A DNA stretch of 64,000 bases, taken from NCBI GenBank assembly GCA_036746235.1, contig DAIOEN010000005.1, forward strand, positions 7,879-71,878, written 5' to 3'. The DNA is from Vulcanimicrobiota bacterium. GTDB lineage: Bacteria; Vulcanimicrobiota; SpSt-956; JAKJGF01. Positions 7,724 to 31,405 of the stretch are shown here, piece after piece. Both the position numbers and the translations under genes were made by a program. Each line of letters starts with the position of its first letter. The first letter of the stretch is position 1. Under the pieces are notes generated by a model that did no database searches, was not told where the DNA came from, and saw only the letters and a program-made list of their open reading frames with translations.

Positions 7724-7933
7724 ATGAAAATTAATCAGACAACTAACTCATCATTTGTAAACACAGGAATAAAAAAGGGAATGGCTGAAGAGGAATTTAG
7801 CTCAAAAGATGTTTTTCAGAAAACAGAAAAACATGAAGATCTTGGGGTTTATAGAGGTAATAAGGCAGTCAAATCAAGTTCATCACCGGGAGAAGATCTT
7901 GCTATCGATCTCATATCAGATTCATGTCAATAA
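7724..7933 (+). CDS. small protein consisting only of the family N-terminal leader (MKINQTTNSSFVNTG...)
   Basis: ATG 7724 sits inside track ORF 7718..7933. The N-terminus aligns with the leaders of 12246..12773 and 30902..31405, but no glycine-zipper part follows. Confidence 0.5.
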   Translation: MKINQTTNSSFVNTGIKKGMAEEEFSSKDVFQKTEKHEDLGVYRGNKAVKSSSSPGEDLAIDLISDSCQ

Positions 7934-8184
7934 GGAACAGACTGCTGCAATAATGTTTTGTGATTATATCAGGGAGCAATTCCTGATAGTCACATATACA
8001 GTATAAACTTATAAGCCCGGTCTGCAATTATGATGCAGTGAATTTAAAAGATATTGCTGATTATTTATTCTGTATAGATTGTTGTACCGGGCAATTTATA
8101 TTCACTTTCGCAAATCTAACAGAAAAAGATAAATTGGAGAAACCCTTTAGAAGTGACGTCAATTTCATCATAAGGAGAGTTATT

Positions 8185-10491
8185 ATGAAACATACAGTAA
8201 TGTCAATACAGGGAAAGTTAAAATCTACAATAAATTTTACTCGAAGTTTTCTAAAAAAACCGGTGGAAATAAATCCTGAGGGAAGAGATTTTTTTATTTC
8301 TTCCGGTAAAGATGAAAAGGAATGGACAGTTCTTATTTACGGAGAAGGTAAAAATAGACTTGCCTATTCCACCGATGCAGCTCTGAATAAAATGGAGAAA
8401 GTCGGTTCAAACAAAGATGTAAATATTGTAGTACAGGCTACAGTCAGTCCGAGCTGGAAAGAAAGATTTTCTCCTGAGATGGGAAGAGTAAATACAAGGC
8501 GTTATTATATTACTAAAGATAATAATGAAGAAAAGATAACTTCTCCTATAGTGGAAGACCTGGGAGAACAAGTTCCCCTGAATGCTGATACTCTGTCAGA
8601 TTTTCTATCCTGGGGTATGAAGGAGTTTCCTGCGAAACATTACATGGTAGTAATAAAGAAACATGGCAGTGGATTTATGAAAACCCGCCATGAGCCACTT
8701 TCTGCAGCAGAACTTGGTGAAGCACTGGAAAAAACAGAGGCGAAAACAGGAAAAACTGTGGATATTCTCTCTTTTGACAGTTGTTCTATGTCACAGATGG
8801 AAGTAGGATATGAAATAAAAGAACATGTGAGAGTTATGGCCGGTTCTCAGGAGGATATATATGCTATTGACTATCCTTATGAAAGAATACTTTCCGGACT
8901 CCAGGAAAAAGCCGGTGTAATAACGGCGAGAGAAGCTGGAGAACTCATTGTTAAATCCCATGAAATAGACGTTCCCAGAGGCATTCAGACAGCAATAGAT
9001 CTGGAAAAATTGAAAAACGTAGGAATAGCCACAAAGGAGCTTGTAGAAACATTAATTAAAAAAGGAATAAAAAGAGAAATAATTTATACCGATATGCTGA
9101 AAACCTCATCTATGGAGCCTGTTGAAAGTAGAAGACTTGCTTTTGATTTCAGAGATGAAAGAGGTTTTCTTAAAAATCTTATGGAAGATAAACATATTAC
9201 ATCAGAAGAAATTAAAGAAAAAGCAAAAATACTGGATGATATGCTTTCAGATGCAGTAATAGCTCATTATATATGGGATACAAAGAAAAAAGTAAAAGAC
9301 GGAAGGGGACTGAACCTTTATATTCCATGGAAAAATCCTTCTAAAGATATAAGAAAAAAATACGACAGTCTTAAATTTGAAAAAGACAGTACCTGGATGA
9401 AACTTATAGATTATATTTTTGAAGATAAACATGTAGCAGAAGATTTTGGAAATGGAATAAAATCATCAGATGAAAAAAATAAACCTGAAAAATTATCTCT
9501 TTCACAGAAATTGGGAAAAGAAATCATACATAATTATAAAAAATATGTTGCCCCCTATCATATGTCTGTCTGCAGGCACATTCCCAGTTGTTCCCAGTAC
9601 GGAAGGGAAGCAATAGAAAAACACGGACTTGTTCAGGGCGGTAAAATGGCTTTTATGCGCATACTGGGCTGTAATTCTGAAGCAACTGCAAAATATGATC
9701 CTGTTCCTGACTTACCACCGGAAGGGGAAGAGGTAAAATGTAATATAGAATATGGAGAAGTACCACCTGATTTCAAAGATAACAACCTTCCTGAAATACT
9801 CGTAACTCCGCCGAAAACAGAAGAAAAATCTCCTTTAAAGAAATATATTGAAAATCATATTATTTCAGCAGGTGCATTAACAGGAAAAATCCTGGGAGGA
9901 ATTACAGGTGCACTTGTTTCATTACCTGTTGGCACTGCTATGGGAGCTATACTTGGAACAAAATCGGGAAGAGATGAAATCACTGATTTCAACAGAAAAC
10001 TCCTCTCAAAATACCACAGAGATTCTGTAAAAGATTTTGCAAATATTGAAAGAGTTGTGGGGACACCGGGTTATAATGTTCATGAAAAAGTAAAAGAACT
10101 TACGGGATCTTTTACAATTACAGAAGATACTCTGAAGAATTCCGGTATAGAAATGTTAAATAGTACATCTGCCGGAACACTTATAAATAAAAGATTTTCA
10201 GAAAAAAAATTAAGAGAAGAACTTTCCGGTCTGAAATTTAACGAAGGAGATATAGATGTAATTATAAATAATGCATCTTACAGTTATAATGAAATCCTTG
10301 CAAAAGTTCTGGGAGGTTCTGCCGGAGCAATAACAGGAACACTTATAGGTGCTCTTGGCGGATCTGCAGTAGGATATCGCTGGGGTTCAAAATTTTCCGG
10401 TTTATTTGCACAGAATTATTTGAAAGAAAAATTTGGAGAACTGGCTACAAAAATAGAAACAGAGCAGATACTTAAATATTATTATGAATAA
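8185..10491 (+). CDS. clostripain-like (C11) cysteine peptidase fused to a YidD-like domain and C-terminal glycine-zipper membrane segments
   Basis: RBS aaggag 7 nt before ATG 8185. C11 motifs WTVLIYGEG.., KKHGSGF (His), LSFDSCSMSQMEVGYE (Cys). YidD motif CRHIPSCSQYGREAIEKHGLVQGGKMAFMRILGCN..YDPVP (nt ~9514-9711). GxxxG-rich hydrophobic stretches near the C-terminus. Confidence 0.8.
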   Translation: MKHTVMSIQGKLKSTINFTRSFLKKPVEINPEGRDFFISSGKDEKEWTVLIYGEGKNRLAYSTDAALNKMEKVGSNKDVNIVVQATVSPSWKERFSPEMGRVNTRRYYITKDNNEEKITSPIVEDLGEQVPLNADTLSDFLSWGMKEFPAKHYMVVIKKHGSGFMKTRHEPLSAAELGEALEKTEAKTGKTVDILSFDSCSMSQMEVGYEIKEHVRVMAGSQEDIYAIDYPYERILSGLQEKAGVITAREAGELIVKSHEIDVPRGIQTAIDLEKLKNVGIATKELVETLIKKGIKREIIYTDMLKTSSMEPVESRRLAFDFRDERGFLKNLMEDKHITSEEIKEKAKILDDMLSDAVIAHYIWDTKKKVKDGRGLNLYIPWKNPSKDIRKKYDSLKFEKDSTWMKLIDYIFEDKHVAEDFGNGIKSSDEKNKPEKLSLSQKLGKEIIHNYKKYVAPYHMSVCRHIPSCSQYGREAIEKHGLVQGGKMAFMRILGCNSEATAKYDPVPDLPPEGEEVKCNIEYGEVPPDFKDNNLPEILVTPPKTEEKSPLKKYIENHIISAGALTGKILGGITGALVSLPVGTAMGAILGTKSGRDEITDFNRKLLSKYHRDSVKDFANIERVVGTPGYNVHEKVKELTGSFTITEDTLKNSGIEMLNSTSAGTLINKRFSEKKLREELSGLKFNEGDIDVIINNASYSYNEILAKVLGGSAGAITGTLIGALGGSAVGYRWGSKFSGLFAQNYLKEKFGELATKIETEQILKYYYE

Positions 10492-10520
10492 TATTATGTG
10501 AAAATACTGTAAGAAAATAA

Positions 10521-10549
10521 AAAAATCAGGTAACTTACCTGATTTTTTT
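10521..10549 (+). terminator. rho-independent terminator after 8185..10491
   Basis: atcaggt/acctgat stem followed by a T7 run. Confidence 0.6.
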
Positions 10550-10579
10550 AGAAATTACTTAATAATTTGAGATTATATG

Positions 10580-10655
10580 AATTTTCATTTTTAACGGCGT
10601 AAAATAAAGCTTTAGATGAAAATTATGTAGAGGCAATTTATCTGAATAATTTATA
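10580..10655 (+). repeat. intergenic repeat family X, copy 1
   Basis: attttcatttttaacggcgtaaaataaagctttagatgaaaattatgtagaggcaatttatctgaataattta. About 75 nt, related to five other copies, all on the + strand. Confidence 0.75.
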
Positions 10656-10658
10656 AAA

Positions 10659-10946
10659 TTAATTATTGCTGCTATTTTTCAGAATATCAAATCTAAAAGA
10701 CCTGGGATATTTCTCTGTAAAAACCAGAGATGAACTCAATTTTTCATGGATAAAACAAAATTCTGATTTTTCTTCATCCACATTTATTCCATTTTCTTTC
10801 AAATCACTTACCATGTTACAGCAGAATTCTTTTACCTGTCCTTCATTGATCAGTAAATTTTTAACAAATTCCATGTAATTTTTAGTTGAAAACTTTTTGT
10901 TGAAAATTATTTCAACCTTTGATTCCGGTAATCTGTAATCGGACAT
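10659..10946 (-). CDS. small hypothetical soluble protein (95 aa) driven by promoter module B
   Basis: ORF with aggtga RBS before ATG 10946 (MSDYRLPESK..). No TM segment or leader. Full promoter module upstream. Confidence 0.5.
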   Translation of the reverse strand: MSDYRLPESKVEIIFNKKFSTKNYMEFVKNLLINEGQVKEFCCNMVSDLKENGINVDEEKSEFCFIHEKLSSSLVFTEKYPRSFRFDILKNSSNN

Positions 10947-11423: not shown

Positions 11424-12221
11424 TCAGACAGTCCATCCCTTCCCATCCAGAGAATCCAGATATGGATCTTCTCCGAAAACCAAAATATTCCCACCCGGCG
11501 CATGAACTACATGGGGTACAATTTCTTTTGCAAGTTTTTCCGCTCCTCCATTGTTGAGAAGTTTCCGGAAATATCCTTCTTCTTCTGTATTCTGCTCTTC
11601 CAGAGGTTTATTTATATCATCTGCATCTCTTTTTTCTTCAGTAATATCAAATTCCAGTTTTCCTTTCATCCTGGCAGAAAAACCTTCTTTTCTTTCTACA
11701 TCAATAATACGGCCAGTTTCTTTCTCTACTTTTACTTTTGTATATGTGTCAGGACCAAGAAGACCGCCGTGGCCATCTCTATACTGTGTATATACGCCTA
11801 CTGTTTTTGTATTAAAGAAGCCTTCTTCTCTTTCTTCGTATTTTGACTCTCTCAGAGAATTTTTGACGTCAATTACACCTGTTTGAGTGAATTCTCCTCC
11901 TCCTGTAGCATGAGAATATCCGTTAATATATGAGTTTTCCATGTATCCATCCGGCGCTTCTTCTGTGCTTGTAATTCTGGCATATTTGGTATTTCCTGTC
12001 TCTGTATCATAAGATACTTCTCCGGCGTGAATGAGTCTGGTGCTCTCCGAATCGTAAGAAGTAATACGATTATTTGAACGGGAAGCTATTACCACTTCAC
12101 CTTTATTGAAATTAATGTCTACCTTATCATTATCAAATTTCTTTACTATTTCTATATCTTCTTTTACAGATTTTATGGTATTCTCTCCATATTTACGATT
12201 TTCATATGTCATATTAATTTT
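11424..12221 (-). CDS. hypothetical protein, one unit of the 'xETGxI' (PepSY-like) repeat family
   Basis: aggagg RBS before ATG 12221 (MKINMTYEN..). Motifs VSYDTETGNTKYARI and VKVEKETGRIIDVERKEG. N-terminus is collinear with 16524..18227. Confidence 0.7.
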   Translation of the reverse strand, partial: KINMTYENRKYGENTIKSVKEDIEIVKKFDNDKVDINFNKGEVVIASRSNNRITSYDSESTRLIHAGEVSYDTETGNTKYARITSTEEAPDGYMENSYINGYSHATGGGEFTQTGVIDVKNSLRESKYEEREEGFFNTKTVGVYTQYRDGHGGLLGPDTYTKVKVEKETGRIIDVERKEGFSARMKGKLEFDITEEKRDADDINKPLEEQNTEEEGYFRKLLNNGGAEKLAKEIVPHVVHAPGGNILVFGEDPYLDSLDGKGWTV

Positions 12222-12245
12222 CATTACAATCATCCTCCTTTAAAT

Positions 12246-12773
12246 TTATGACAGTGCTTCATTTAGGAGTCCGCCGCCGACTGATCCAAAAGCTCCTACC
12301 ACTCCAATGCCTCCTATAACACTGAAACCTACAGCCAGTGGATCTTTCGTTATTACTGCTGCTATTCCGGCTCCTCCACCTGCTATTGCACCTGCCAGTG
12401 CACTGGCAATTATCTGTTTCTTATTTCCTTTCTGTCTATCAGAGATCATTGCTCCCATCATTCCTCCAGTAAGAGCTCCTCCTGCTACTGTCATTACAGT
12501 GGCCACAGGCCCTCCAATCGAATAGAGTGCCCCTGCGGCAATCATACTGCCAATACCACCCAGAATTCCGAGAGGACTGAACAGAGGCATGGGAATTTCA
12601 GAAGGATCTTTGTCTGCAGAAGCTTTCTGTTTTTTTATACCATCCATAGAAAGAAATTCAGGTTTTTCTTCGGTCTTGCCAAGGATAACTTTATCTGTTT
12701 CTTCTTTTTTATCATTTTTTCTTAATAAGCCTGTATTTAATACCTGACTTGACGTTATATTTTTTATTTGCAT
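12246..12773 (-). CDS. leader + glycine-zipper membrane protein (175 aa)
   Basis: MQIKNITSSQVLNTG leader, charged linker, then ~110 aa Gly/Ala-rich hydrophobic region (GILGGIGSMIAAGALYSIGG..GGALTGGMMGAMI..GAIAGGGAGIAAV). Confidence 0.75.
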   Translation of the reverse strand: MQIKNITSSQVLNTGLLRKNDKKEETDKVILGKTEEKPEFLSMDGIKKQKASADKDPSEIPMPLFSPLGILGGIGSMIAAGALYSIGGPVATVMTVAGGALTGGMMGAMISDRQKGNKKQIIASALAGAIAGGGAGIAAVITKDPLAVGFSVIGGIGVVGAFGSVGGGLLNEALS

Positions 12774-13092: not shown

Positions 13093-13100
13093 GGGTGTTG

Positions 13101-13531: not shown

Positions 13532-14620
13532 ATGAAAGTAGAATTGTTAAAAACAGGAACTACTCAAACACAAAAAACAATAAATAATGTAAAAAAAGAA
13601 AAAGAAATTACTGAAATATATGATAATGATACTGTAGAACTTAATTCTAACAAAAGCGGAATAAATATGCCATCTATCACTCAGAGTAAAAATGTTTTCT
13701 TTAAATTTTTTCAAAGTGAAAAAAGTAAAGAAGAAGAAGCTTTCCGTAATGATGTTCTTAATGGAACCTATAAAGATTATTCTTTCTATGAACCTGAAAA
13801 AGTTCTTCTTAAAGATGGCACTGTAAGAGGAGTTAGTCGTAATTCATTTCTGATCGGTTTGGATGAGAAAACTCACAATTACAGGTTGGCAGGTGCTTTT
13901 TCAGGTATGACTCTTGGCCTGGCAGGATCGGCAATTTTTTTCCCGGGATTTCTTCTGGCATTTCCTATCTCTATTATCGCTGGATTAGCTATTGGAGGGG
14001 TTGCGGGAGATTTTATTGGAACAGAGAAAGTAGTAGAAGACTTTAACAAAGATAACAATGTAACTATTGATGATATACATCCTGAAGACAGGCGGGCTAT
14101 TTTTAGGATGTTTAGGATTGAAACGTCTGGGGCTATAGATAAAGATAGATATGTCATTACTGAAGAAGATTTTATTAAAGGAAAAGATTTTAAAGAAACC
14201 ACAAAAGAGTTAATAGATATATTCAAAAAAGTTGGAACTAATAGAATGTCCTACACTTTTGATATAAATAACAGAATTAAAGATATAGAAAATGATAAGG
14301 ATAGAAAGAATGTAAAAGATGCTATTTTTTCTTTTATGGATATACAAAAACCAAAAATTGATGGTTATAGAAGAGGTACACATATTATAGAAATTGCTAT
14401 ATACGTCTTTGATTATATAAAAGAAAATCCTATAAAAGGAAAGAGTAGTGTAGAATCTATAAATGAATTTTATGGACTCTTACAGAGCATGAAAGAACAG
14501 AAAGATGCTCTTCATCTTACATTAAAGATTTATAGAAATATTAAAGGTATAGAAAATGATAATGAAAGAGAATCAGCTAAAAATAAGATTTTAGCAGAGA
14601 GTAACCTCAAAGCATTTTAG
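13532..14620 (+). CDS. hypothetical membrane protein with central glycine-zipper segment
   Basis: 362-aa ORF with ggaggt RBS. N-terminus MKVELLKTGTTQTQKTINNVKKEKEITEIYDNDTVELNSNKSG is collinear with the 11424 and 16524 proteins. Central GAFSGMTLGLAGSAIFFPGFLLAFPISIIAGLAIGGVAG. Confidence 0.7.
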   Translation: MKVELLKTGTTQTQKTINNVKKEKEITEIYDNDTVELNSNKSGINMPSITQSKNVFFKFFQSEKSKEEEAFRNDVLNGTYKDYSFYEPEKVLLKDGTVRGVSRNSFLIGLDEKTHNYRLAGAFSGMTLGLAGSAIFFPGFLLAFPISIIAGLAIGGVAGDFIGTEKVVEDFNKDNNVTIDDIHPEDRRAIFRMFRIETSGAIDKDRYVITEEDFIKGKDFKETTKELIDIFKKVGTNRMSYTFDINNRIKDIENDKDRKNVKDAIFSFMDIQKPKIDGYRRGTHIIEIAIYVFDYIKENPIKGKSSVESINEFYGLLQSMKEQKDALHLTLKIYRNIKGIENDNERESAKNKILAESNLKAF

Positions 14621-14821: not shown

Positions 14822-16330
14822 TTATCTTTCTTCAGGCTGATTTACAGACATTTTTTCCATAGTTTCTCCTATTGCTTTACCTGCTTTACCGCCCAGTCTG
14901 CTTCCTGCAGTTACTCCTGCTATGGCACCTGCAATGAGTCCAAGCCATCCTCCTACAGGACCTGCAAGAGCAAATCCTCCCATAACTCCGAGATATGGCC
15001 CTATAAATCCTCCTGCTGTGGCACCTGTTGCACCACCTGCTGCTATAGCAGCTGCCCTGTGCAGGCTTCCTGTTTCTCTAATGTCTTTGCTTTTATTTTC
15101 AAATGATACAGTTTCTGTATTTTCATTATTATTTTTACGCAATTTTCTCCATGGAAGTTTTGATAATATCATATTAATAACTTTACCTGAAGGACCTGCA
15201 ATAATTCCAATAGTATTTTCTATTACTGCTCCTGCCTGTTCTGCAGTAATTTCCTGTCTGTCTATTGCTCTGTTCAGCTCCTGTTTTGCACCATCTATGG
15301 CCATACCTGCCACACAGAATATTTTACTTGCAAAACAGAGTCCTGCCGCAAAATCCAGAGTGCCATTCATCCTGGATTTTACATCTTTTTCTCCTTTTGC
15401 CATTTCTCCAAGACCTCTGTAAACCTGTAGAAAACCTGTAATATAACTTATCATTGCCAGGCCGTTTTGAATATAAGGAATTTTTTCAAGATTTTTTCCT
15501 ATGAATTTTCCAGTTTCCCTGAAGGCTTCATTATCTATAAGCTTTTCAAAGAAATTACTCTTTTCCAGTTCCTGAAGTCTTGCATATTTTTCAGGGCACT
15601 GTGCTTTAAGTTTTTCAGGTTCTCTGTAGTAGTTGGAAAAACTCTCGGCAAAATCTTCCCATCTGTTTGTAGAAGCATATTTACTGATATAAGGAGGCTT
15701 TCCCCAGGCATACCCCTTACTTTCGAAGCCTATAGCACCAAAAAGTGATGTTTCGAAATCTCTTGTATGTCCTACTTCATGAATTATTACATGTTCTGCC
15801 CAGGCTTTTGAATAGTTTAAATATTTTCTGGAAAGATCTATGTGAGGTGATGATGGTATGGCATGGGCAAGACCTGATGCACCATCTATAAAAGGCTTCA
15901 TTGTTATGGTCTTCACTGAATTAATATCTTTAAGAGGAAGTTTATCCAGCGTGGAAATAAGCAGTTCTTTTTCTTCAGATGTCATATTGAGCAGGCCTGG
16001 ATAGATAAAAGATGGAAAAGCTTTTAATGTTTTAAAGAATTTTAATGATGTATTAACAGATTTTTTTACCATGTCATGTTCATCTATATATTCCGATGTT
16101 TGAATAGCAGTGTTTATAAAAGTATCTTTCCCGCGTTCGAAGCTTCCTTTTTCTGCTGATATTGTATTTCTTTTTTCAAAGTTTTCTTTCATTTCTTTTA
16201 ATAGATCGCCTTCTGTTACAGATAAGGAAGATTCAAGCGTTACAACATCTTTAAACTCTTTTTTTATATTATCTCCTGAAATTATGTCATTTATTTTTCC
16301 AGTACTGAATGATATATTATTTATTTTCAT
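14822..16330 (-). CDS. leader + HExxH zinc metallopeptidase-like domain + glycine-zipper C-terminus
   Basis: MKINNISFSTGK leader. HEVGH at nt 15767-15781, with downstream NRWEDFAESFSNYY as in M34/M90-type zincins. C-terminal AAGGATGATAGGFIGPYLGVMGGFALAGPVGGWLGLIAGAIAGVTAG. Confidence 0.75.
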   Translation of the reverse strand: MKINNISFSTGKINDIISGDNIKKEFKDVVTLESSLSVTEGDLLKEMKENFEKRNTISAEKGSFERGKDTFINTAIQTSEYIDEHDMVKKSVNTSLKFFKTLKAFPSFIYPGLLNMTSEEKELLISTLDKLPLKDINSVKTITMKPFIDGASGLAHAIPSSPHIDLSRKYLNYSKAWAEHVIIHEVGHTRDFETSLFGAIGFESKGYAWGKPPYISKYASTNRWEDFAESFSNYYREPEKLKAQCPEKYARLQELEKSNFFEKLIDNEAFRETGKFIGKNLEKIPYIQNGLAMISYITGFLQVYRGLGEMAKGEKDVKSRMNGTLDFAAGLCFASKIFCVAGMAIDGAKQELNRAIDRQEITAEQAGAVIENTIGIIAGPSGKVINMILSKLPWRKLRKNNNENTETVSFENKSKDIRETGSLHRAAAIAAGGATGATAGGFIGPYLGVMGGFALAGPVGGWLGLIAGAIAGVTAGSRLGGKAGKAIGETMEKMSVNQPEER

Positions 16331-16523
16331 ATATTTTCTCTCTCCTTTTTTCTAATGTCTTTTTCCAACTTCTACTCTGTGTGAAAAAAGCAATTTTACT
16401 TAAATTATTTATATCATCAATATTTTCAGTTTTTTCTTTCTTATTTAATATTATCTTATCTTCTCATAGAAACACCGGAACAGGCCAGAACTCTGTCACA
16501 GTAAGGAACAGAAATCCTCTGTA

Positions 16524-18227
16524 TTATCCTTTACGCTCCGGTACATAATATTCTGGAGATATTCTTTCGCTGTGCCACTGTTTTGTATCAATCAATGCAC
16601 CTGTCTCTCTGTTAAATACAGCTTTACCGGAATATATCTTTTCTTCTCTATATATTTCATTATTACTATAATATGGATTTCCATTTTCATAACCATATTC
16701 ATAGATGGATTCCTGATAACTATTTTTTGTTTTAATATACATGGATTCAAGATCTCCTGTTTCACTGTTAAAAGATACCTTTGCTTCATTTACTGACTCT
16801 CCATATCCACCTTCAACCATATTAATATATGGAGAATATTCTCCTCCCCACTGATTTATAAGTCTGGAAGAAGAATTCATTTCGATCCTGCCTGACTCGG
16901 GATTCAGATCTGCTTTACTGTTATCATACTTTAGTATTTCCTTCGATGCAATTTCAATTCTTCTTTTCATTTCGGAAGCAAATTCGTTCCTCTTTTCATT
17001 ATATTTAATCTCTTCTGCTTTTTTATCTTCTTTTAATTGATTTTCTCTTTTTTCTTTTTCTTCTTTTTTGAGATAGTCAAGATAAGCTGAAGGAGTAACA
17101 TCCTTTTCTTCGGAAAGAAAGGGCTTTCCCTTTTCTGAACTGTTATAATGTTTAATTTTGAGTATTTCTCCTGTCTCTTTATCTACTTCTACTGCAGTAG
17201 CCCAGACACATTCATATGATTCCCTGTTGAAATAAACAGATATTTCACGACCGGTGAAGAAATTTTTCTTTTCCTGATACCAGGAAACACCACTCGAAAA
17301 AGGACCCGGTAATCTTCTATATGTTGAAACCTTTCCTTCTTTAATATCTCCTGTAAGAGGATCATAAGAAAGTCTGGCATTTTTTACAATCCTGCGTGGA
17401 CCATATCCATATCTTCCAGTTATGTCATTTTCTCCTTCGAAATCTGTATTATCAAGTTTTATTTCCCCTGTCTTTTCATCTCTATCTTTACCTGCAGCAG
17501 AATTGATAGCTTCATTGCCTTTAGCATTATCATAAAGTTTTGCCAGTTCAAAATCATCTTTTACTCTTTCTATTGCATCAAAGGCTATGTTTAATTCTTT
17601 ATTAGTAAATTTACCTGTCTTGAATTCAGGGTCTGTCGAGTTTAATATTAATCTTTTTTCATCAATATTACTGAACTCTTTTCTTGCTTTTTTCAGAGCA
17701 GAATCTCCTTTTTTTATTTCTACATCAATTATATCTCCGGTTTTCTTATTTATCTCTACTCTGGAAAATATTTCTTTCTTATCTCTGTCATCCTGAAATT
17801 GTGTATATATACATTTATTTTTTTCTGCTATCTCTTCATATTTTGATTCTTTCAGGCTATAGGACAGATCACTTTCACCCTTTTCAAACCTTTCTCCTCC
17901 GCCTATAGCATAAAATACTCCGTCAATATATGAATTTTCCTGTCCCCATTCCCTTAACTGCTGTGAAGTGGATACTCTACCTTCTTTTATATCACCTGTT
18001 TCCGGATTGTACGACACTTTTGCACTGTAAAGTTTCTCTTTATAGTCTGTATCAATGATCTGTGTGGAAGCACCATAAGGATTATGAGTTATATCAACTT
18101 CCCCTTTACTGCAATTAATATCTACTTTATCATTATCAAAATTTTTTGCTATATCTAATTCTTTTTTTACGGAATCTATGGTCTGTTTTGCCTGAACAAG
18201 TTTTCCCTGTGATAAACCAATCTTCAT
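16524..18227 (-). CDS. hypothetical protein with three tandem ~190-aa PepSY-like 'xETGxI' units
   Basis: 567-aa ORF. Recurring VSYNPETGDIKEGRVST / LSYDPLTGDIKEGKVST / VSFNSETGDLESMYI and EINKKTGDIIDVEIKKG / VDKETGEILKIKHY / FNRETGALIDTKQW. Confidence 0.75.
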   Translation of the reverse strand: MKIGLSQGKLVQAKQTIDSVKKELDIAKNFDNDKVDINCSKGEVDITHNPYGASTQIIDTDYKEKLYSAKVSYNPETGDIKEGRVSTSQQLREWGQENSYIDGVFYAIGGGERFEKGESDLSYSLKESKYEEIAEKNKCIYTQFQDDRDKKEIFSRVEINKKTGDIIDVEIKKGDSALKKARKEFSNIDEKRLILNSTDPEFKTGKFTNKELNIAFDAIERVKDDFELAKLYDNAKGNEAINSAAGKDRDEKTGEIKLDNTDFEGENDITGRYGYGPRRIVKNARLSYDPLTGDIKEGKVSTYRRLPGPFSSGVSWYQEKKNFFTGREISVYFNRESYECVWATAVEVDKETGEILKIKHYNSSEKGKPFLSEEKDVTPSAYLDYLKKEEKEKRENQLKEDKKAEEIKYNEKRNEFASEMKRRIEIASKEILKYDNSKADLNPESGRIEMNSSSRLINQWGGEYSPYINMVEGGYGESVNEAKVSFNSETGDLESMYIKTKNSYQESIYEYGYENGNPYYSNNEIYREEKIYSGKAVFNRETGALIDTKQWHSERISPEYYVPERKG

Positions 18228-18392: not shown

Positions 18393-19019
18393 TTATCCTC
18401 TCGGTGTATAATAAAGGGGAGGATTTCTGAAACATTTATTTTCCGTCATAACGGCATTTTTCTTGCCTATATTATTTAAAAGAACATCCCCTTCAGCCTT
18501 TATATTATCATAGCCACATGGTCTGACAGTAACTATATGTCCGTGGCCTTTACTTCTCTGTGCTCCGATTACAGGTAATCCCATGTTTGCAAGTTTCTGT
18601 GCTTTTTTACTGTCAACTTCCATCCAGTAGCCATCTTTTTCTTTAGCAGAGGTAGCCAGCTTTCTTGCCATAAGGTTTGCCGTATATGGTGTCCCTGTTT
18701 CAGGATGTGCCAGACCTACCTTTGAGTCTGTTATATCTATTCCCAGATCTTTAAGAGTATGAGCCACTCCTATATTACAGAAGGTTTTACCACTGTGAGG
18801 TGCAAGACTTCTGTCTTTTCTGGATTCATCCTGGGCCTTTACAAGAGACTCCATTCTTGCCTTTTTCAATTCCTCCTGAGATGGGAGAATATCTCTGACT
18901 GCATGATTGCTGGATGAGACTTTATTTTGCAAAGGTTTTTTAGTAATGGTATTACTATGCTTTGGAATAATGTTATTACTTTTCGGCCATGAAAATCCTA
19001 TAAATCCCGGTATTGACAT
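18393..19019 (-). CDS. putative papain-like (NlpC/P60-, CHAP- or Tae-type) Cys/His amidase, no signal peptide
   Basis: 208-aa ORF with aggagg RBS. Candidate nucleophile in GKTFCNIGVAHTLKDLG and His in SKGHGHIVTVRP. The assignment rests on motif pattern only. Confidence 0.45.
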   Translation of the reverse strand: MSIPGFIGFSWPKSNNIIPKHSNTITKKPLQNKVSSSNHAVRDILPSQEELKKARMESLVKAQDESRKDRSLAPHSGKTFCNIGVAHTLKDLGIDITDSKVGLAHPETGTPYTANLMARKLATSAKEKDGYWMEVDSKKAQKLANMGLPVIGAQRSKGHGHIVTVRPCGYDNIKAEGDVLLNNIGKKNAVMTENKCFRNPPLYYTPRG

Positions 19020-20660: not shown

Positions 20661-20964
20661 TACGATTAACAAAATAGAAATTACCACCGGTTAAAGTAAG
20701 AGAATTTTCTTTTTTTCCATGAAACTCCTCCATCTTTTCCGATCATTCCAATACCTCACGGAATACCGGCAAAACCCGGCATCCCCAGTAATGTCAGAGC
20801 CATTGGAACTTTAACCAGGCCTGCAGCTACTACAATACCTGCCCCGGTAATTGCCACGGCAGTCGCAGTGGCAATTATCTGTTTAGAATTGTTTCCTGAT
20901 TCCTCAGATTTGCTTGCTGCCAGAACTCCTCCCATAATAGCACTGACAGTCTTTTTTATTATAG

Positions 20965-22165: not shown

Positions 22166-23764
22166 TCAAAGTGTATATTCTCTTTCTATTACCTTTGTAA
22201 TACAGTTCAGAGCTCCTCTGAAGGAACTTACGGCATTCATATCTACCGGTATGGTATTATATCCATATTTTTCATAAACACTGTTTCCTGCAGTATCAAG
22301 TTCATCTATGCCAAAATTGGGAATGAATATGTTATCTCCGTCTATGACTGCATTGTTATAGGTTATCCAGGGTACATATTTAAGTTTTGTCGTACCCAGA
22401 TAGGGCAATCTTTCCACTTTAAATCCGTCTTTTTCAAGGTCTGCCGCCAGGGAATCAAATTTCTCCTGTAATTCTCTATCACCATCCATAGTATAGAGGA
22501 GATTATCCAGTGGCTTTAAAGGTCCCCAGGTAACTGTATTTTCTATATTTCTTTCATATCTTTCATATTTAAAAGGTTCTCTCTCTTTTATATCTTTAAG
22601 TATCTTTATCGCCATGGAAGGATCTCCCACTGTTACGACTTTTTTCCCTGTTTCTGGATCAATTTTTCCAAGAGGAGTCATGGCCATATCTATATGAAAA
22701 GCAGGCTGTCCCTCATTATTTCCTATTATAACAACCTTCTGTTTCGGAAAAGTTCTGTCTAACATCAATTTACAAAGTTCTTCGTGACTTACATCCTTTG
22801 CATCTATATGCAGGTCACCCTTTATGGTATTGTATTTCTGCGGATAGTTTTTCATATCTTTCATCATAAAAGTTATTGCGTCAGAACCTATATAGATATT
22901 ATCCATTGTAGGAAGCTGGTTTCCTCCATCTATGAATCTCCCTTTCACTCTTTCATATGTGAGTTCAGGATTTACCCCTGCCAGGGAAGAGGCCACTTTC
23001 CAGTCTCCCTGTTGTGGAAAATCCATTCTGTCCTGTTCCATGATTTTACTGCCCTGTACCAGTGTCGAATCCTGTGCCCATATGGAAAGATTTGCTCCTG
23101 TAGAAATTACTGTTATCCTTTCAGGAGAAGATATGGTTCCATCATTACACCATTTCATGATTTCATCTTTCACTTCTCTTCTGCCCTGTTCATCTGATGT
23201 GAGTATGGTAAATTTTGCATCATCCATACTGGATATAAACGTTTTCATGGCATTCAGATAGGCCGGCTTTTCTTGCCCCATATTTCCGAAGGTAAAGCAC
23301 ATATGTTTTATTCTGCCTTCATTCTGAGGTATCATATAACCGTCCATGGCAAGACTCGTTTTTAATTCTCCTGATTTTTCCCTCCCCTCTGTTTCAGTCT
23401 GATTTTTCCCTTCTGTTCCTTTTCTGGCAGTGATGACTCCTGCCATGATACCTCCTGCAATACCGAGAGGTACTGCTGCCATGGCAGGCAGTGCAGAACC
23501 GGTAATATATGATGCAGCAGCACAGGCACCTGTTATAAGCGTTCCTGCTGCAGTACCTGTAATAATACTTTTCTGTAGAGATTTCTTCTCACTTATACCC
23601 TGTGTGAGAAAAGCAATGTTCCGTAAATTATTTATATCATCAATATTGCCGGTTTTTTCGTCCTTATTTAGTATTATCTTATCTTCCTGTTCTATTTTTT
23701 CCTGGACAGAAAATTTTTGCTTTATTAAAGATACAGCAGGTGACAGATTTATGTTTATTTTCAT
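22166..23764 (-). CDS. leader + glycine-zipper segment + agmatine-deiminase/PAD-like (guanidino-group-modifying enzyme superfamily) domain
   Basis: aggaaagga RBS before ATG 23764 (MKININLSP). TGTAAGTLITGACAAASYITG..GIAGGIMAGVI. GME-like motifs SIWAQDS, FIDGGNQ, AFHIDMAM and C-terminal FRGALNCITKV (catalytic Cys context). Confidence 0.6.
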   Translation of the reverse strand: MKININLSPAVSLIKQKFSVQEKIEQEDKIILNKDEKTGNIDDINNLRNIAFLTQGISEKKSLQKSIITGTAAGTLITGACAAASYITGSALPAMAAVPLGIAGGIMAGVITARKGTEGKNQTETEGREKSGELKTSLAMDGYMIPQNEGRIKHMCFTFGNMGQEKPAYLNAMKTFISSMDDAKFTILTSDEQGRREVKDEIMKWCNDGTISSPERITVISTGANLSIWAQDSTLVQGSKIMEQDRMDFPQQGDWKVASSLAGVNPELTYERVKGRFIDGGNQLPTMDNIYIGSDAITFMMKDMKNYPQKYNTIKGDLHIDAKDVSHEELCKLMLDRTFPKQKVVIIGNNEGQPAFHIDMAMTPLGKIDPETGKKVVTVGDPSMAIKILKDIKEREPFKYERYERNIENTVTWGPLKPLDNLLYTMDGDRELQEKFDSLAADLEKDGFKVERLPYLGTTKLKYVPWITYNNAVIDGDNIFIPNFGIDELDTAGNSVYEKYGYNTIPVDMNAVSSFRGALNCITKVIEREYTL

Positions 23765-24347: not shown

Positions 24348-25178
24348 ATGAAGATAAACAATATATCGAATCCCATCACACAGAAAACAGATAAAACCGG
24401 TTCTGATAAAAAACTTCAGGATAACAATGACAACACAAAAGATGAATTGAAGTCATCTTCAGCCGGTGAAGCTGATATGGCATTAAAAAACGATCTGGAA
24501 GCAATGAGAATTATTGCAGGAGGTCTCTTCGGTAGAGACATAGTTCATAATATAAAATATATCGTAGAAAATGATAACGGTGAATATGATAAGAATCCGG
24601 AGAAAGGTAAATTCGAAGGAAGGGGAGGAAAAGGAGAATTTTCTATTAATAAGGAAACGGGGGAGATAGAAAAGGCAGAATATATAGATGGTTCCTATAC
24701 AGGGGGAAGTATGTATAAATATGAAAATACCGGTGGCAGGAGAATTTATACCTATTTCGACTCAGATACATTCGATGAGAGCTATGAAAAAAATATCTAT
24801 GATGCACAGACAGGCCAGGTTCTGAATGAGAAGTTCTGGGGTAATAAAAATTCTTCCGATCTTGCATCAACTCTCGGACGTATAGAAAAACCTCTGGAAG
24901 CAAGAGTAATGGCAAAAGAGATTTCTTACAGTGATGGTATTGCAGAAGGAATAAAAAGAGATGCTACTATATGGAGTAAGATTATTGGAGAGTCAGCTCT
25001 TACGGGTACCGCAACGGCTATTCTTGGAGGAGGACTCGGTTTTATCCTGGGAATGAATCCCCTTGTTACAGGAGTAATAGGTGCAACTGCCGGTGCTGCC
25101 TGGACTGTATCAGGTAAACTGGAGGGTATACCTATGCAAAAAGTTTACCTTGAGCTCGAGAGTAGAAAAAAAGAATAA
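24348..25178 (+). CDS. leader + PepSY-like 'xETGxI' region + glycine-zipper C-terminus
   Basis: MKINNISNPITQK leader. FSINKETGEIEKAEYIDG and IYDAQTGQVLNEKFW. C-terminal SALTGTATAILGGGLGFILGMNPLVTGVIGATAGAAW. Confidence 0.75.
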   Translation: MKINNISNPITQKTDKTGSDKKLQDNNDNTKDELKSSSAGEADMALKNDLEAMRIIAGGLFGRDIVHNIKYIVENDNGEYDKNPEKGKFEGRGGKGEFSINKETGEIEKAEYIDGSYTGGSMYKYENTGGRRIYTYFDSDTFDESYEKNIYDAQTGQVLNEKFWGNKNSSDLASTLGRIEKPLEARVMAKEISYSDGIAEGIKRDATIWSKIIGESALTGTATAILGGGLGFILGMNPLVTGVIGATAGAAWTVSGKLEGIPMQKVYLELESRKKE

Positions 25179-25194: not shown

Positions 25195-26436
25195 ATGTTT
25201 GCATCATTATTTGCAGCCACTACTGCAGTAAGTGCACTGAGAATAGGCCTGTCTTCCATGAAAGGACAGGAAAGTGAAAGACCTGAATATTTAGACACAT
25301 TTCAACATCAGGGTGAAGGCGATATTCAGGGCAAGTCTTTTTATATGGATGCAGAAGATCTCAGAAATACTGCTATGAAACTCGGTAACAGTATTAAGAA
25401 ATTGGATAATACGGAAAAGGATCTGAATCATGAACAGGGAGTAATAGAAGTGAAAGATGCCCTGTTAGAAGACCTTTCCCTCATCTCTCCTTCTATAAAA
25501 AAGGCAACAGTAACAGTCGATAAAAACTCGGAATTAAAGGGACTGGAAGTTATAACTGAAGATCCTGAACATGGCAAAGGCATATATAAATATGAAAGTA
25601 AAAAAAAGGGATTTATGAAAAGAGAAGAAAAAGTAGAAATCTCTTCTTATGAATATAATAATAATACCGGTAAAGGAGTTTATAGAAAGGGAATCTATGA
25701 TAAAGATACTGAATATGCGAACTCCACTCCATCTCCTGTGAGTTATGCCGAATTCTCCAATGACTATTCCATTAAGAATAAGAAGCATTATATACCTCTT
25801 ATTGAAAATTCTGAAATAGCAAAGGAATTGAAGCAAAAATTAAAAGAAATAGAAATGAGCAGTCAGAGCAGTCCATCTGTTGAATCTACTGTTATAAATA
25901 ACAGAAAAGATGAAGAAAAAGAAATAGAAAGTCTTTTCTCCTCTATTAAAGAAAGTGCAGGGAAAATAGATAAAAAGGGAAAAAAATATGATGAAAAAAC
26001 CGGTAATTTTATAGAAGATATTCTGAAGGATTTCACATATGAACATGATGCTAAAAGATTAAAAATTGGTGATAACGGTTCTATTGTATGTTACAGGCGG
26101 GACTATCATGGTACACATAACTTTTCAGCCTATAAAGAAAAAATTGATTCTTCTGACGGACACATTACATCTGTTTTCTTCCAGAGAAAATCTTATTCCG
26201 ATGCTGTTGGTTCATATAGTAAAATTATAACTATTTATGTGGATAAAAGTTCAGGGGAAATTAAATCTGTAGAATATTACGATCCGAATGATTTCGATGC
26301 ATCCAGTATCTGGAATGACCCTGGCATGAAACTGCACAGAAAAATGCAGGAAAAAGCAGAGATGGCATATGAAAATGCAGATCCGGAAGGATGTATGGAT
26401 GAAATAAGCAACACTCACGTGTCAAACAGATATTGA
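25195..26436 (+). CDS. hypothetical protein of the PepSY-like repeat family
   Basis: aggagg RBS before ATG 25195 (MFASLFAATTAV..). IYVDKSSGEIKSVEYYD. Starts 17 nt after the preceding stop, so likely the same operon. Confidence 0.65.
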   Translation: MFASLFAATTAVSALRIGLSSMKGQESERPEYLDTFQHQGEGDIQGKSFYMDAEDLRNTAMKLGNSIKKLDNTEKDLNHEQGVIEVKDALLEDLSLISPSIKKATVTVDKNSELKGLEVITEDPEHGKGIYKYESKKKGFMKREEKVEISSYEYNNNTGKGVYRKGIYDKDTEYANSTPSPVSYAEFSNDYSIKNKKHYIPLIENSEIAKELKQKLKEIEMSSQSSPSVESTVINNRKDEEKEIESLFSSIKESAGKIDKKGKKYDEKTGNFIEDILKDFTYEHDAKRLKIGDNGSIVCYRRDYHGTHNFSAYKEKIDSSDGHITSVFFQRKSYSDAVGSYSKIITIYVDKSSGEIKSVEYYDPNDFDASSIWNDPGMKLHRKMQEKAEMAYENADPEGCMDEISNTHVSNRY

Positions 26437-28866: not shown

Positions 28867-28898
28867 AAGCTGTACCTCCTGATATTTTTAGAATAATC

Positions 28899-29561: not shown

Positions 29562-29595
29562 AGTAGACCTCCATTGTTTATAAATTTAGAGCACA

Positions 29596-30272: not shown

Positions 30273-30365
30273 TTACTCTGCAGGTTTACCTGTCCTGTCA
30301 TAGGCAGACCTGGCTGTCTTGTAATACTTATTTCCTATGAATGTTCCTGTATTACTTACATTCAT
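30273..30365 (-). CDS. 30-aa ORF (MNVSNTGTFIGNKYYKTARSAYDRTGKPAE) behind a full promoter module; possibly the 5' part of a frameshifted gene
   Basis: Strong RBS aaggagg 8 nt before ATG 30365. Below the track's size cut-off. Overlapped out of frame by ORF 30113..30301. Confidence 0.3.
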   Translation of the reverse strand: MNVSNTGTFIGNKYYKTARSAYDRTGKPAE

Positions 30366-30409
30366 AATATAAACCTCCTTATGTTTTATATTTTCTAAAT
30401 TATAAAATA

Positions 30410-30512
30410 ATTATAGAATAAATTATTTTCTCTGCAATATGTAAAATGTTAATAAAATGTTAATAAAATATATAATTGATAATAATGTAATATAGACAAA
30501 AAATAACGTTAA
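30410..30512 (-). promoter_or_regulatory. conserved regulon promoter module, copy I
   Basis: Minus strand: aacgtt (30505-30510), tgtct, attaacattttattaaca (30447-30464), 31 nt, tataat (30410-30415). Confidence 0.75.
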
Positions 30513-30759
30513 TGTGAAAATATAAAAATCAGATGGATAAAATATCTATGAATTTGAACAGGAAAAATAAGGATATTATGTTTTTATAGATTCTGCCTGA
30601 ATAGATGTAGAATAATTTTTCTATCATGTTCTCAAGGGTAATCAAATAAAAATAGACAGAAAATAACTTTTTGCCTTTTCATCCTTTTTTTGCACATTCT
30701 TTTTAATTTTTTATGATTCTCACAGTTTTATTACAGAATAATTATAGTTGAATAACATT

Positions 30760-30860
30760 AACGTTATATTCTGTCCTTTTTACTATATTTGCATGTATGT
30801 CTTTGTTAACATTTTTTTAACATTTTTTATAAAACAAAAGAGTTTATCTTTCTGTATAAT
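30760..30860 (+). promoter_or_regulatory. conserved regulon promoter module, copy J
   Basis: aacgtt 30760-30765, tgtcc 30772-30776, gttaacatttttttaaca 30805-30822, 32 nt, tg-tataat (30855-30860). Confidence 0.75.
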
Positions 30861-30901
30861 ATAAACACTGTAAAATATAAAATATTAAAGGAGGAGAGAT
30901 T

Positions 30902-31405
30902 ATGAAAATTAATAACCTGACAAATCCTGTAACTCTTCAGATAAGAAAAAATAAAGGGGCGGAAAAAAAAGAGGGTGAATTTAAAGAAGAGGTAATTCCT
31001 GGTAATAGTTTTGAAAAACCGGATTTTCTCAAACTTCAGCCCGGAAATGTGCAAAACTCTTCCATTAAAAAAAGTATTACTGATACAATTACCAATCCTA
31101 AAGTTATTCTTTCTGGCATGGCCTCTGCCTCTGCTGTAGCAGGATATGCGGGATATATTCTGGGCGGACCTGCAGGTACCGGTGTTGCAATGGCATTAAT
31201 GATTACTGCAGGAGGATTAATTGAGAAAAAGATTTATGGTGACGGCTCTTTAATGGCCTTTGTTGGTGCCGGAGCGGCAATTGGAGGAAGCATTTCTGCC
31301 TGTATTGGTTCTCCTCTCTTTTCATTGCCAAGTGCAGCGATTATAGGTTCTACCACTGCTTTCCTTGGAGCAAGTTATCTCATGGGATCCAGCTGGGGAT
31401 CTTAA
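30902..31405 (+). CDS. leader + glycine-zipper membrane protein (167 aa)
   Basis: ggaggag RBS. MKINNLTNPVTLQ leader. C-terminal ~100 aa Gly/Ala-rich hydrophobic region (GMASASAVAGYAGYILGGPAGTGVAMALMITAGG..GAGAAIGGSISACIG). Confidence 0.75.
   Translation: MKINNLTNPVTLQIRKNKGAEKKEGEFKEEVIPGNSFEKPDFLKLQPGNVQNSSIKKSITDTITNPKVILSGMASASAVAGYAGYILGGPAGTGVAMALMITAGGLIEKKIYGDGSLMAFVGAGAAIGGSISACIGSPLFSLPSAAIIGSTTAFLGASYLMGSSWGS

Follow-up and report, generated by a model that had tools for sequence, protein, structure and literature searches.

Which signal directs a protein to its place when it carries an enzyme module of a kind normally found outside the cytoplasm and has no Sec signal peptide? This question is raised by a stretch of 64,000 nucleotides from a Vulcanimicrobiota bacterium (GenBank assembly GCA_036746235.1, contig DAIOEN010000005.1, positions 7,879 to 71,878), which is called the window here. 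Genes between its positions 7724 and 31405 encode a co-regulated family of proteins with a common three-part architecture. A hydrophilic N-terminal extension (the leader) is followed by an interchangeable enzyme or repeat module and, in most members, by one or two Gly/Ala-rich membrane hairpins. Judged from sequence comparison, the leader is a clade-wide feature at the protein level, and on kinds of enzyme that other bacteria usually export it stands where the Sec signal would be. We tentatively favor the view that it targets these proteins independently of Sec, and the leading candidate is a type III route of the kind taken by FlgM.

A hydrophilic leader at the N-terminus

The leader is a hydrophilic segment of about 40 residues. 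It opens with M-[KRNST]-[IL]-x-[SN], runs on through an acid-poor stretch rich in S/T/N/Q/I/P and reaches D-x-[VF]-x-[LIV]-[SG] near residue 35. The leaders of the window have in common an MKIN(N) start, a linker rich in K/E and, near residue 30-35, a motif of the D-K-V-x-L type. All eight N-terminal starts listed in the initial annotation, which was made from the sequence alone, are present, and the one given as 12221 is the ATG at 12224-12222. These N-termini had been called near-identical. That description holds for MKIN(N) and a few residues more; beyond them the leaders fall into several profile subfamilies. Pairwise and leave-one-out profiles run against all open reading frames (ORFs) of the window recovered each member of a core subfamily A (g7724, g12773 and g30902; gene names refer to window positions) at about 1e-6, and recovered g16330 (4.5e-4) and g24348 (1.6e-3) marginally. 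A separate subfamily B consists of g12221, g18227 and g13532. The g23764 leader matched a pseudogene remnant alone, and g22098 (MKILNNKLN) was not recovered by its leave-one-out profile.

An exact MKIN start occurs in 4 of the 47 ORFs that a crude caller supported by a ribosome-binding site (RBS). All four are family members, no other such start exists in the window, and two further MKIN starts of the family, those of g7724 and g23764, were overlooked by this caller. The shared MKIN start is not due to chance. In g24348 and g30902 the leader is conserved as protein, because the same residues (MKINN..NP.T) are retained despite synonymous changes in six codons. As the initial annotation had stated, the leader proteins have neither a Sec nor a lipoprotein signal, since the first 60 or so residues contain no hydrophobic stretch in any of them. 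Inspection of the alignments also revealed no double-glycine motif in the leader. Turnover of the cassette is visible in the leader remnant at 16320-16463 and in the leader-only ORF g7724.

The leader stands apart from catalogued families. With the 11 leaders of the window as queries, an exhaustive profile search of 1.84 billion representative sequences matched only proteins of this organism. A cross-species leader profile, A3, matched only variants of g7724 among 5.8e9 proteins, and a phmmer search with g12773 against the same number found g12773 itself alone. Twenty leader segments compared with Pfam and NCBIfam (E<=10) returned nothing relevant, and neither did a PDB profile search.

A second recurrent N-terminal type, MIGS/MIGD (MIGSIKNNIS, MIGSLKNTGI, MIGDINLS, MIGSVQPKAV), is seen on other genes of the regulon (19766, 57823 and 63225). 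It is also found on a 1212-aa repeat protein of a relative that has C-terminal Gly-rich hairpins (locus L027, 3428-7066).

The leader in related genomes

Relatives were reached through homologues of g8185, a fusion of a C11 (clostripain-family) peptidase and YidD. Their genomes span 32-67% GC, the leader carriers 35-62%, and the metagenome-assembled genomes of the named relatives are labeled Eremiobacterota, Armatimonadetes and Firmicutes. Full-length homologues of g8185 share 36-64% identity with it. In the relatives' loci, at 35-62% GC, the same N-terminal pattern recurs in neighboring genes, on C11 proteases and on a PQQ beta-propeller protein. The logic of a leader plus a variable payload, which the initial annotation had proposed, is thereby borne out. 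Weaker look-alikes of the leader are found on an S8 peptidase and on small Cys-rich proteins.

One case is a 777-aa C11 protein with C-terminal hairpins in locus L025 that starts MKINSLYKTNSPVELNPYHKTYTEQQLLPSYEDKVEVSSGKEKEW (MKINS..EDKVEVSSGKEKEW). Locus L027 encodes MKILRSS...YDRLDLTSGIKEKEW. In L030 (45% GC) a C11 protein reads MRIDQGPTQ...NDVVEISSGESKEKEW (MRIDQG..NDVVEISSG) and the PQQ beta-propeller starts MRIDSSNSS. The corresponding motif is ...GRDQVEVGR in L029 (54% GC), and L071/L073 have MNISSLS..SDSVSIGQQ. Further examples are the proteins P0032, P0033, P0036/37, P0041, P0045, P0049, P0052 and P0054. Proteins encoded next to P0049, on a marine contig, have hydrophilic N-termini of the M-x-I type and no clear D-x-V-x-L motif. 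In the 17-sequence alignment from which A3 was built, Met1 is invariant and Asp33 is conserved in at least 90% of the sequences, followed by alternating hydrophobic residues, x-[VF]-x-[LIV]-[SG].

A metagenome scan seeded with the C11-YidD alignment yielded 79 loci. Most C11 homologues in them have a classical hydrophobic signal peptide immediately ahead of the first strand (KEWTVLVY). A subset of 47-62% GC has a hydrophilic leader at that same place, for example MNISSLSNTAPALRNAPARAAAPKQDAAPAPSDSVSIGQQQ. A simple regular expression for the leader matched 13 of 203 RBS-supported ORFs in loci of the clade and 2 of 545 in outgroup loci, a contrast that is indicative only because the clade definition is partly circular. 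The notion that the similarity is nothing but AT-rich codon bias is excluded, because the pattern recurs in relatives of 35-62% GC and withstands synonymous changes in the window.

The C11-YidD gene adjoins a second C11 gene in four related loci. This second gene bears a leader in L025, L027 and L030; in L029 it is a leaderless gene of 441 aa. The sequences suggest that such conserved loci, often with a small Cys-rich protein, look like conserved machinery rather than hypervariable weaponry.

The conserved neighborhood extends over 4039-11048 in L025, 7507-13021 in L027, 7890-12070 in L029 and 9273-14090 in L030, and is also seen in L031. The second C11 gene of L025, L027 and L030 has the order leader, C11, hairpin. 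The small Cys-rich protein is made of repeats (GDTGIECLFGSDT or DFPPECLFGGDT units) and starts with MKINS or MNINS in L025, L027, L030 and L031 and with MTPLTS in L029. Of this set the window retains g7724 and g8185 only. A 520-aa neighbor in L029 (13874-15436) matched the NolX family of Pfam (5.9e-10). The match falls on a thrice-repeated DG-x-I-S-x-x-DL motif and was rejected as evidence of a type III secretion system (T3SS). The same protein ends in a Cys...His region reminiscent of g19019.

Enzyme modules and membrane hairpins

The initial annotation had named several modules. The C11, YidD and DUF4105 calls were upheld by Pfam, and the zincin, peptidylarginine deiminase (PAD)-like and PepSY calls all fell below threshold. 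The C11 domain of g8185 scores 1.8e-21 (77.6 bits against a cutoff of 25.8). His160-Gly161 and Cys200 are invariant in 14 homologues, and its structural model matches clostripain (9cip) at 4e-15 in Foldseek. All solved C11 structures among the matches for which a location is stated are secreted enzymes. The YidD domain (PF01809) scores 1.6e-18 (66.7 bits, cutoff 27), with Cys463, Cys469 and Cys496 invariant. No transmembrane segment separates the C11 and YidD domains in g8185 or its orthologues. In g22098 the Lnb_N/DUF4105 domain scores 3.4e-16 (59.7 bits, cutoff 22.2). The zincin assignment of g16330 comes from an HEVGH motif and weak matches to M90 (2.5e-4, 21.2 bits, cutoff 26.2) and PPEP-1 (0.009). 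The match of g23764 to PAD_porph (7e-3, 16 bits, cutoff 25) and that of g18227 to PepSY (2.5e-3, 18.5 bits, cutoff 24) are likewise sub-threshold; no PDB match was found for g23764. The gene g12221 is homologous to g18227.

The MKIN leader at 7724 does exist, as the separate upstream ORF g7724; g8185 itself has no MKIN start. In its place g8185 has an N-terminal extension that ends with RDFFISSGKDEKEW. An AlphaFold2 model of g8185, made with the 14 homologues, has a mean predicted local distance difference test score (pLDDT) of 73, and the C11 fold begins at residue 45. Residues 1-41 have a pLDDT<50, and this region, the equivalent of the leader, is therefore predicted to be a flexible, disordered extension outside the C11 fold.

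The nine Gly/Ala-rich hydrophobic segments noted at 8185, 12246, 13532, 14822, 20756/20965, 22166, 24348, 30902 and 57130 all exist. They are 24-55 aa long, consist of 36-54% G/A/S with many small-xxx-small spacings, and usually contain an internal Pro. They read best as two-helix hairpins and not as single spans; AlphaFold models both segments of g8185 as long helices. Their cores are almost uncharged, and both flanks have 2-4 K/R per 15 residues, an enrichment that barely exceeds the background of the proteins. The hydrophobicity of the hairpins is moderate, and its contrast with that of bona fide transmembrane helices is not significant as computed. The only significantly similar pair of tails is that of g12773 and the ORF at 20756-21133 (E 1.5e-6), and the tails otherwise form a compositional class. 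The leader is independent of the hairpin tail, because it is also found on proteins with no hydrophobic segment (g12221, g18227 and the L030 PQQ protein). Conversely, the product of 57130, described earlier as little more than leader plus zipper, carries no MKIN leader.

Promoter and regulation

A promoter shared by the family had been recognized, and the search confirms it. The motif GTTAACA-N4-DTTAACA has 17 matches at 13 distinct sites, against 0.19 expected in the window. The promoter cassette reads in the order CGTT-N7-GTC, a TTACTATAT box, about 15-20 nt, GTTAACA-N4-GTTAACA, about 31 nt, and a TATAAT-like box. Copies often stand in divergent pairs. The 5' untranslated regions from promoter to start codon are not conserved, so no contiguous cassette has been copied. 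Apparent operons are g19019-g18227-g16330 (probable), g12773-g12221, g23764-g22098 and g24348-g25195, whose downstream genes have no promoter copy of their own. In the L027 locus of a relative, the leader-C11 gene is preceded by a related motif (position 7399).

Response regulators of the OmpR/PhoB type bind 11-bp direct repeats of this layout. The TTAACA repeat may be a site for such a regulator, and the regulon one of the two-component type. By inspection, the repeat fits none of the sigma-54, sigma-28 and extracytoplasmic function (ECF) sigma consensus promoters. A phosphorelay cluster at 33996-43482 adjoins the regulon and encodes a REC-only protein, a REC+Hpt protein, a 2031-aa dCache/PAS/GAF hybrid kinase with REC and Hpt, and another REC protein. 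Sigma-54 activators are encoded at 59421-62432 and to the left of the window. The cluster and these activators are candidates for the upstream control of the regulon. A DNA-binding regulator of the OmpR type was not seen.

The leader as a candidate export signal

Composition links the leader to a known class of signals. Among residues 2-13, S/T/N/Q/I/P make up 59%, where the other proteins of these loci have 35% (p = 1e-9), and D/E number 0.21, against 1.05 in controls (p = 2e-5). An S/T/N/I/P-rich and acid-poor composition is that of type III secretion signals. Together with the lack of an h-region and the low pLDDT of the equivalent region in g8185, this gives the leader proteins an N-terminus with the features of a type III signal.

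The resemblance appears closest to FlgM. The secretion determinants of FlgM are reported to stretch from its N-terminus as far as the beginning of the anti-sigma-28 domain, and foreign cargo fused to FlgM can leave the cell through the flagellar T3SS. The first residues of the Pfam FlgM domain in three FlgM sequences are exactly D-K-[IV]-x-[IL]-S, starting at residues 32, 40 and 35. A leader hidden Markov model (HMM) gave the three FlgM N-termini higher scores than 2,000 composition-preserving shuffles each (p = 0.0015, 0.0225 and 0.0035). Bacillus subtilis FlgM was among the top few matches outside the seed in about 9,900 candidate N-termini (E = 3.2). Conversely, when the three FlgM N-termini were made into an HMM, its best non-FlgM match among 9,878 N-termini was the L025 leader-C11 protein (E = 0.044, end to end). 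The FlgM domain overlaps with the leader in its first six or so residues only (D-x-V-x-L-S). The likeness is a weak, reciprocal one of pattern and does not amount to membership in the FlgM family. A type III route finds some context in marine relatives: Paoli et al. (2022; PMC9259500) report that Eremiobacterota of the order UBP9 are, by prediction, motile Gram-negative bacteria that have genes for flagella, a range of secretion systems and numerous degradative enzymes.

The sequence of events that we propose is as follows. The modules are of kinds that are normally extracytoplasmic (C11, zincin, DUF4105, PepSY-like), and in this clade the extension would be a Sec-independent targeting signal that replaces the signal peptide. 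It would feed the proteins, which are probably unfolded at this stage, into a dedicated export route, after which the hairpins would fix the enzyme in a membrane, be it of the cell's own envelope or of a target. A flagellar-type T3SS is the leading candidate for this route, because the composition and layout of the signal are most like those of type III signals and specifically of FlgM. The analysis establishes the three-part architecture, the co-regulation, the conservation across the clade and the replacement of Sec signals by position. Export itself, its route and an effector role are inferred from these features, and we hold this reading tentatively, short of calling it probable. A bolder version would have the clade exchange Sec signals for a portable FlgM-like signal on hydrolases, export them by flagellar or related type III machinery, and insert the hairpins into recipient membranes, as an effector arsenal that is flagellum-dependent, two-component-regulated and possibly predatory. 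We consider this version improbable.

Several points weigh against export by such a route. No secretion apparatus is present in the window, as had been noted before and as Pfam confirms, nor is there one in the flanks or within 10 kb of any relative's locus. None of 20 leader segments matched an FlgM model (PF04316 or NCBIfam) at E<=10, and no PDB FlgM chain was matched. The FlgM statistics are marginal, and FlgM was chosen for testing after the resemblance had been noticed. These statistics rest on three FlgM sequences, each confirmed as such by Pfam. The leader examples, including the set used for the composition test, were partly picked by eye, and the division into clade and outgroup has the circularity mentioned above. 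A topology facing the cytoplasm fits the hairpins, the K/R of their flanks and the YidD fusion equally well.

Alternative readings

That topology is the core of the strongest alternative. The proteins may be inner-membrane enzymes facing the cytoplasm, with YidC-inserted hairpins and with both flanks and the module in the cytoplasm. The extension would then be a disordered regulatory segment, a pro-peptide, or a site at the invariant Asp where the co-conserved C11 proteases, of clan CD, would cleave. Hairpins of 24-55 aa with internal Pro/Gly suggest the tight turns expected under this reading, and the basic flanks, near-uncharged cores and moderate hydrophobicity also agree with it, although the K/R enrichment of the flanks barely rises above background. 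YidD, an insertion efficiency factor of the cytoplasmic face, is fused to C11 in g8185 and in all its orthologues, which also counts against export. There is neither a signal peptide nor a secretion system nearby, and the synteny of C11-YidD with the second C11 gene in four related loci is as one would see for housekeeping or developmental machinery. However, many domains that are typically exported would have to have moved to the cytoplasm: C11, S8, the PQQ/BamB-like propeller, the "periplasmic domain" DUF4105/Lnb_N, the PPEP-like zincin, the PepSY-like modules and the Cys-rich repeats. The leader also stands on hairpin-less proteins, and it replaces the signal peptide at the identical position in C11 homologues. 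We judge this alternative somewhat unlikely. Even if it is true, a set of co-regulated proteases that face the cytoplasm on hairpin tethers, with YidD built in, would make an unusual module of membrane biology. A functionless hitch-hiker, in which recombination spreads a cassette of promoter, RBS and first codons and MKIN reflects a preference for A-rich starts in an AT-rich genome, could account for the promoter cassette at 13 sites, for payload-less leader fragments and for the weak profile similarity among subfamilies. MK and MKI starts are indeed common in the genome, as in the epimerase at 32663 (MKILIIGGT), but exact MKIN is confined to the family. The unconserved 5' untranslated regions and the identical amino acids encoded by different codons speak against such a cassette, and the pattern with its near-invariant Asp at about residue 33 persists in relatives whose 47-62% GC leaves no room for an A-rich bias. 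This explanation is very improbable.

The initial annotation read the family as a polymorphic toxin, bacteriocin or effector arsenal, in which glycine-zipper tails permeabilize target membranes and small or PepSY-like neighbors confer immunity. The leader-plus-variable-module logic, the hydrolytic payloads (C11, zincin) and the two-gene units g12773-g12221 and g24348-g25195 agree with it, as do displaced cassettes: the remnant at 16320-16463, the leader-only g7724 and the frameshifted tail at 20756-21133. Relatives have been reported as possibly predatory (PMC9259500). Yet Pfam and NCBIfam found no known toxin, trafficking or immunity domain in the family, and PADLOC returned 0 matches, so that the pairing of a known trafficking domain with a known C-terminal toxin is absent by all three. 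The PADLOC result equally led us to reject a defense system. No gene of a type I secretion system (T1SS) or peptidase-containing ABC transporter (PCAT), a type VI (T6SS) or type VII (T7SS) secretion system, or contact-dependent inhibition (CDI) lies nearby. The search for an exporter in the window and its flanks revealed no ABC/PCAT or other exporter, and the only ABC system is an importer of the Opp type. There is no clear immunity pair. The partners g12221 and g25195 are repeat proteins of "ETG" modules, PepSY-like only by way of the sub-threshold match in g18227, and nothing links either to immunity. The putative immunity genes encode soluble paralogues with leader-type N-termini of their own, which is unexpected for protection from a membrane toxin. 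Most of the tails share no homology, and leader-C11 and C11-YidD are syntenic, conserved orthologues across lineages, unlike hypervariable toxin tips. On present evidence this is not a toxin system, and we regard the arsenal reading as quite unlikely.

If the leader is a targeting signal, as we tentatively propose, it would be an undescribed N-terminal sorting signal on dozens of enzymes in a poorly known clade, and it would mark a wholesale replacement of Sec signals by another route. The motif of about 40 aa would then be a handle for predicting the exported and membrane proteome of these organisms. It would also link them to FlgM-type flagellar secretion in a directly testable way.

Features of the window

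The window has a GC content of about 32%, and its organism is seen in several ENA and Logan metagenome assemblies. Neither rRNA nor tRNA genes were found in it. When a genome collection was scanned for the composite promoter motif, eight single matches came up, all attributable to chance, so this collection does not include the species. In tblastn comparisons with plasmids, the conserved GH65 and Tn3-transposase proteins reached 35% identity at most, in scattered phyla. The coordinates of the features are given in the table.

Features of the promoter regulon and the leader family in the window (aa, amino acids; hairpin positions are residues of the protein)
Feature	Position	Strand	Description	Remarks
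Promoter sites (18 nt)	starts at 7601, 11025, 12841, 13280, 19123, 19475, 23857, 24256, 30447, 30805, 33495, 56971, 63111		GTTAACA-N4-DTTAACA
Promoter direct repeat	7601..7618		GTTAACA-N4-RTTAACA type, 5' of g7724 and g8185
g7724	7724..7933	+	69-aa leader-only ORF (MKINQTTNSS...), subfamily A	Separate ORF in every sample
g8185	8185..10491	+	C11 peptidase + YidD + two Gly/Ala hairpins (559-592, 703-726)	Pfam, homologues, AlphaFold2, Foldseek
95-aa gene	10659..10946	-	No transmembrane segment, no family match; immunity candidate of the initial annotation	Own promoter copy (motif 11025-11042)
g12221	11424..12224	-	Soluble, "ETG" repeats, B-type N-terminus (MKINMTYEN...DNDKVDIN)	22 nt downstream of g12773
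g12773	12246..12773	-	Leader (MQIKNITSS...TDKVILGK) + two Gly/Ala hairpins (60-111, 120-174)	Promoter motif 12841-12858
g13532	13532..14620	+	B-type N-terminus (..DNDTVELN) + hairpin 119-165 + C-terminal domain of unknown family	Promoter motif 13280-13297
g16330	14822..16330	-	Leader + HEVGH zincin (weak M90/Mx and PPEP-1-like matches) + C-terminal hairpin 437-481
Leader/linker remnant	16320..16463	-	g23764 type	No start codon, no promoter; abuts the g16330 RBS
g18227	16524..18227	-	567 aa, soluble, B-type N-terminus, repeated PepSY-like "ETG" modules
g19019	18393..19019	-	208 aa, no leader, Cys...His motif	First gene after promoter 19123-19140
g19766	19766..20611	+	MIGSIKNNIS-type N-terminus, internal tandem repeat	Promoter motif 19475-19492
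Overlapping out-of-frame ORF	20756..21133	-	Second hairpin, homologous to g12773 hairpin 2	Separate 87-aa gene call in other samples
g22098	20965..22098	-	MKILNNKLN N-terminus + Lnb_N/DUF4105 + hairpin 325-361
g23764	22166..23764	-	Leader (MKININLSP...EDKIILNK) + hairpin 66-114 + C-terminal domain (weak PAD_porph)	Promoter motif 23857-23874
g24348	24348..25178	+	Leader (MKINNISNP) + "ETG" module + hairpin 216-251	Promoter motif 24256-24273
g25195	25195..26436	+	413 aa, hydrophobic first 20 aa, "ETG"-type repeats	Downstream partner of g24348
g30902	30902..31405	+	Leader (MKINNLTNP...EEVIPGN) + two hairpins (68-108, 115-160)	Promoter motif 30805-30822
g57130	57130..57684	+	184 aa, no MKIN leader, C-terminal hairpin 145-180	Promoter motif 56971-56988; followed by g57823 (MIGSLKNTGI)
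Promoter motif	63111..63128	+	5' of a 316-aa MIGDINLS gene (start 63225)	Gene runs past the window end

About 115 nt of the remnant at 16320-16463 are some 88% identical to codons 26-62 or so of g23764. The ORF at 20756-21133 is likely the frameshifted tail of g22098, as their overlap and the hairpin homology suggest; the frameshift is fixed or programmed, because the same split is seen in other samples. The glycine-zipper match of g8185 (Gly-zipper_Omp) is sub-threshold (19.5 bits, cutoff 25), and a Pfam search gave no family for g19019. Directly to the right of the window, after the MIGDINLS gene, lies a further leader+zipper gene of 126 aa, MKIGKNADF...KDRVILCE (L019).

The tandem repeat of g19766 has a unit of about 80 residues (GLMKIKDNENTNSEQKELARLGINIVKGNDFSDITAVETRYKFLDAI...). 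A 228-aa allele of g19766 in the protein collection, P0014, is about 82 residues shorter than the 310-aa ORF with a GTG start, and it is probably a variant in repeat number. The gene after promoter 30447 (29959-30440, minus strand) looks disrupted. A 30-codon ORF (MNVSNTGTFIGNKYYKTARSAYDRTGKPAE*) comes first, the sequence then continues in other frames (among them ...KGVNVLSLSKR...), and gene callers split the region into pieces of 30 aa and 62 aa. At 2902-3942 there is an N-terminal fragment of a Tn3-family transposase (DUF4158; 346 aa, the full enzyme having about 1000 aa), with a hybrid kinase on one side and a sigma-54 activator on the other, which points to earlier activity of mobile elements at the island's edge. 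A protein with a prepilin-type N-terminal methylation motif is encoded beside two genes of unknown families (217 and 530 aa) at 46552-47319 and 44270-46539. This group at 44270-47319 is a possible pseudopilin cluster, and nothing ties it to the leader family.

Comparison with known systems

A leader plus a payload is a known kind of architecture. The libraries searched contain no description of this particular leader, of its replacing Sec signals, or of its combination with Gly/Ala hairpins and a C11-YidD core. Polymorphic toxins, T6SS proteins with MIX/FIX regions, and the leaders of extracellular contractile injection systems (eCIS) and Photorhabdus virulence cassettes (PVC) resemble the family in that a shared N-terminal region precedes variable modules and displaced fragments point to cassette recombination. 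In contrast to them, the leader proteins are linked to no known secretion system and have no recognized toxin domains and no immunity pairs, and core members are syntenic across lineages. The contact-dependent bacteriocins CdzC/D and the "glycine zipper 2TM" proteins SlyB/Pcp share with the family the helical hairpins with small-xxx-small Gly/Ala spacing. Pfam and the tail comparison gave no homology to either. Unlike CdzC/D, the proteins have no GG leader and no adjacent T1SS/PCAT, and with 167-768 aa they are mostly large and enzyme-bearing. Unlike SlyB/Pcp, they have neither a lipobox nor a hydrophobic N-terminus, and Gly-zipper_Omp stays below its cutoff.

Among the peptidases, g8185 and the leader-C11 proteins of relatives are true members of the clostripain family (C11), although they carry a hydrophilic leader instead of a Sec signal and, in addition, YidD and/or membrane hairpins. 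The hairpins recall substrates that need YidC only, such as F0 subunit c and M13 procoat, in being Gly-rich two-helix structures with apparent tight turns and basic flanks, and the fusion of YidD in g8185 adds to this parallel. Here, however, large soluble enzyme domains are attached to the hairpins and YidD is lacking in many members, and the likeness is one of mechanism, not of family. Chlamydial Inc proteins and hairpin effectors of type III and type IV secretion systems offer another parallel: a hydrophilic N-terminal signal combined with a bilobed, moderately hydrophobic hairpin of 40-60 aa, with both termini expected on the same side. There is no sequence relation to Inc proteins, no T3SS was seen here, and many hairpins are C-terminal, after the enzyme module. 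Compared with chlamydiae, the large PAS/GAF hybrid kinases and sigma-54 activators suggest a sizeable signaling repertoire.

Type III substrates as a class share with the leader a disordered, uncleaved-looking N-terminal segment of about 30-40 residues in which S/T/N/I/P are abundant and acidic residues scarce. The closest counterpart is FlgM. The rest of the FlgM domain is absent from the leader proteins, their cargo consists of enzymes of 170-800 aa with membrane hairpins, and their promoters are not sigma-28-like. Yet the N-terminal secretion region of FlgM has the same layout as the leader, in which M-x-I-x is followed by about 30 residues and then by D-x-V-x-L-S.

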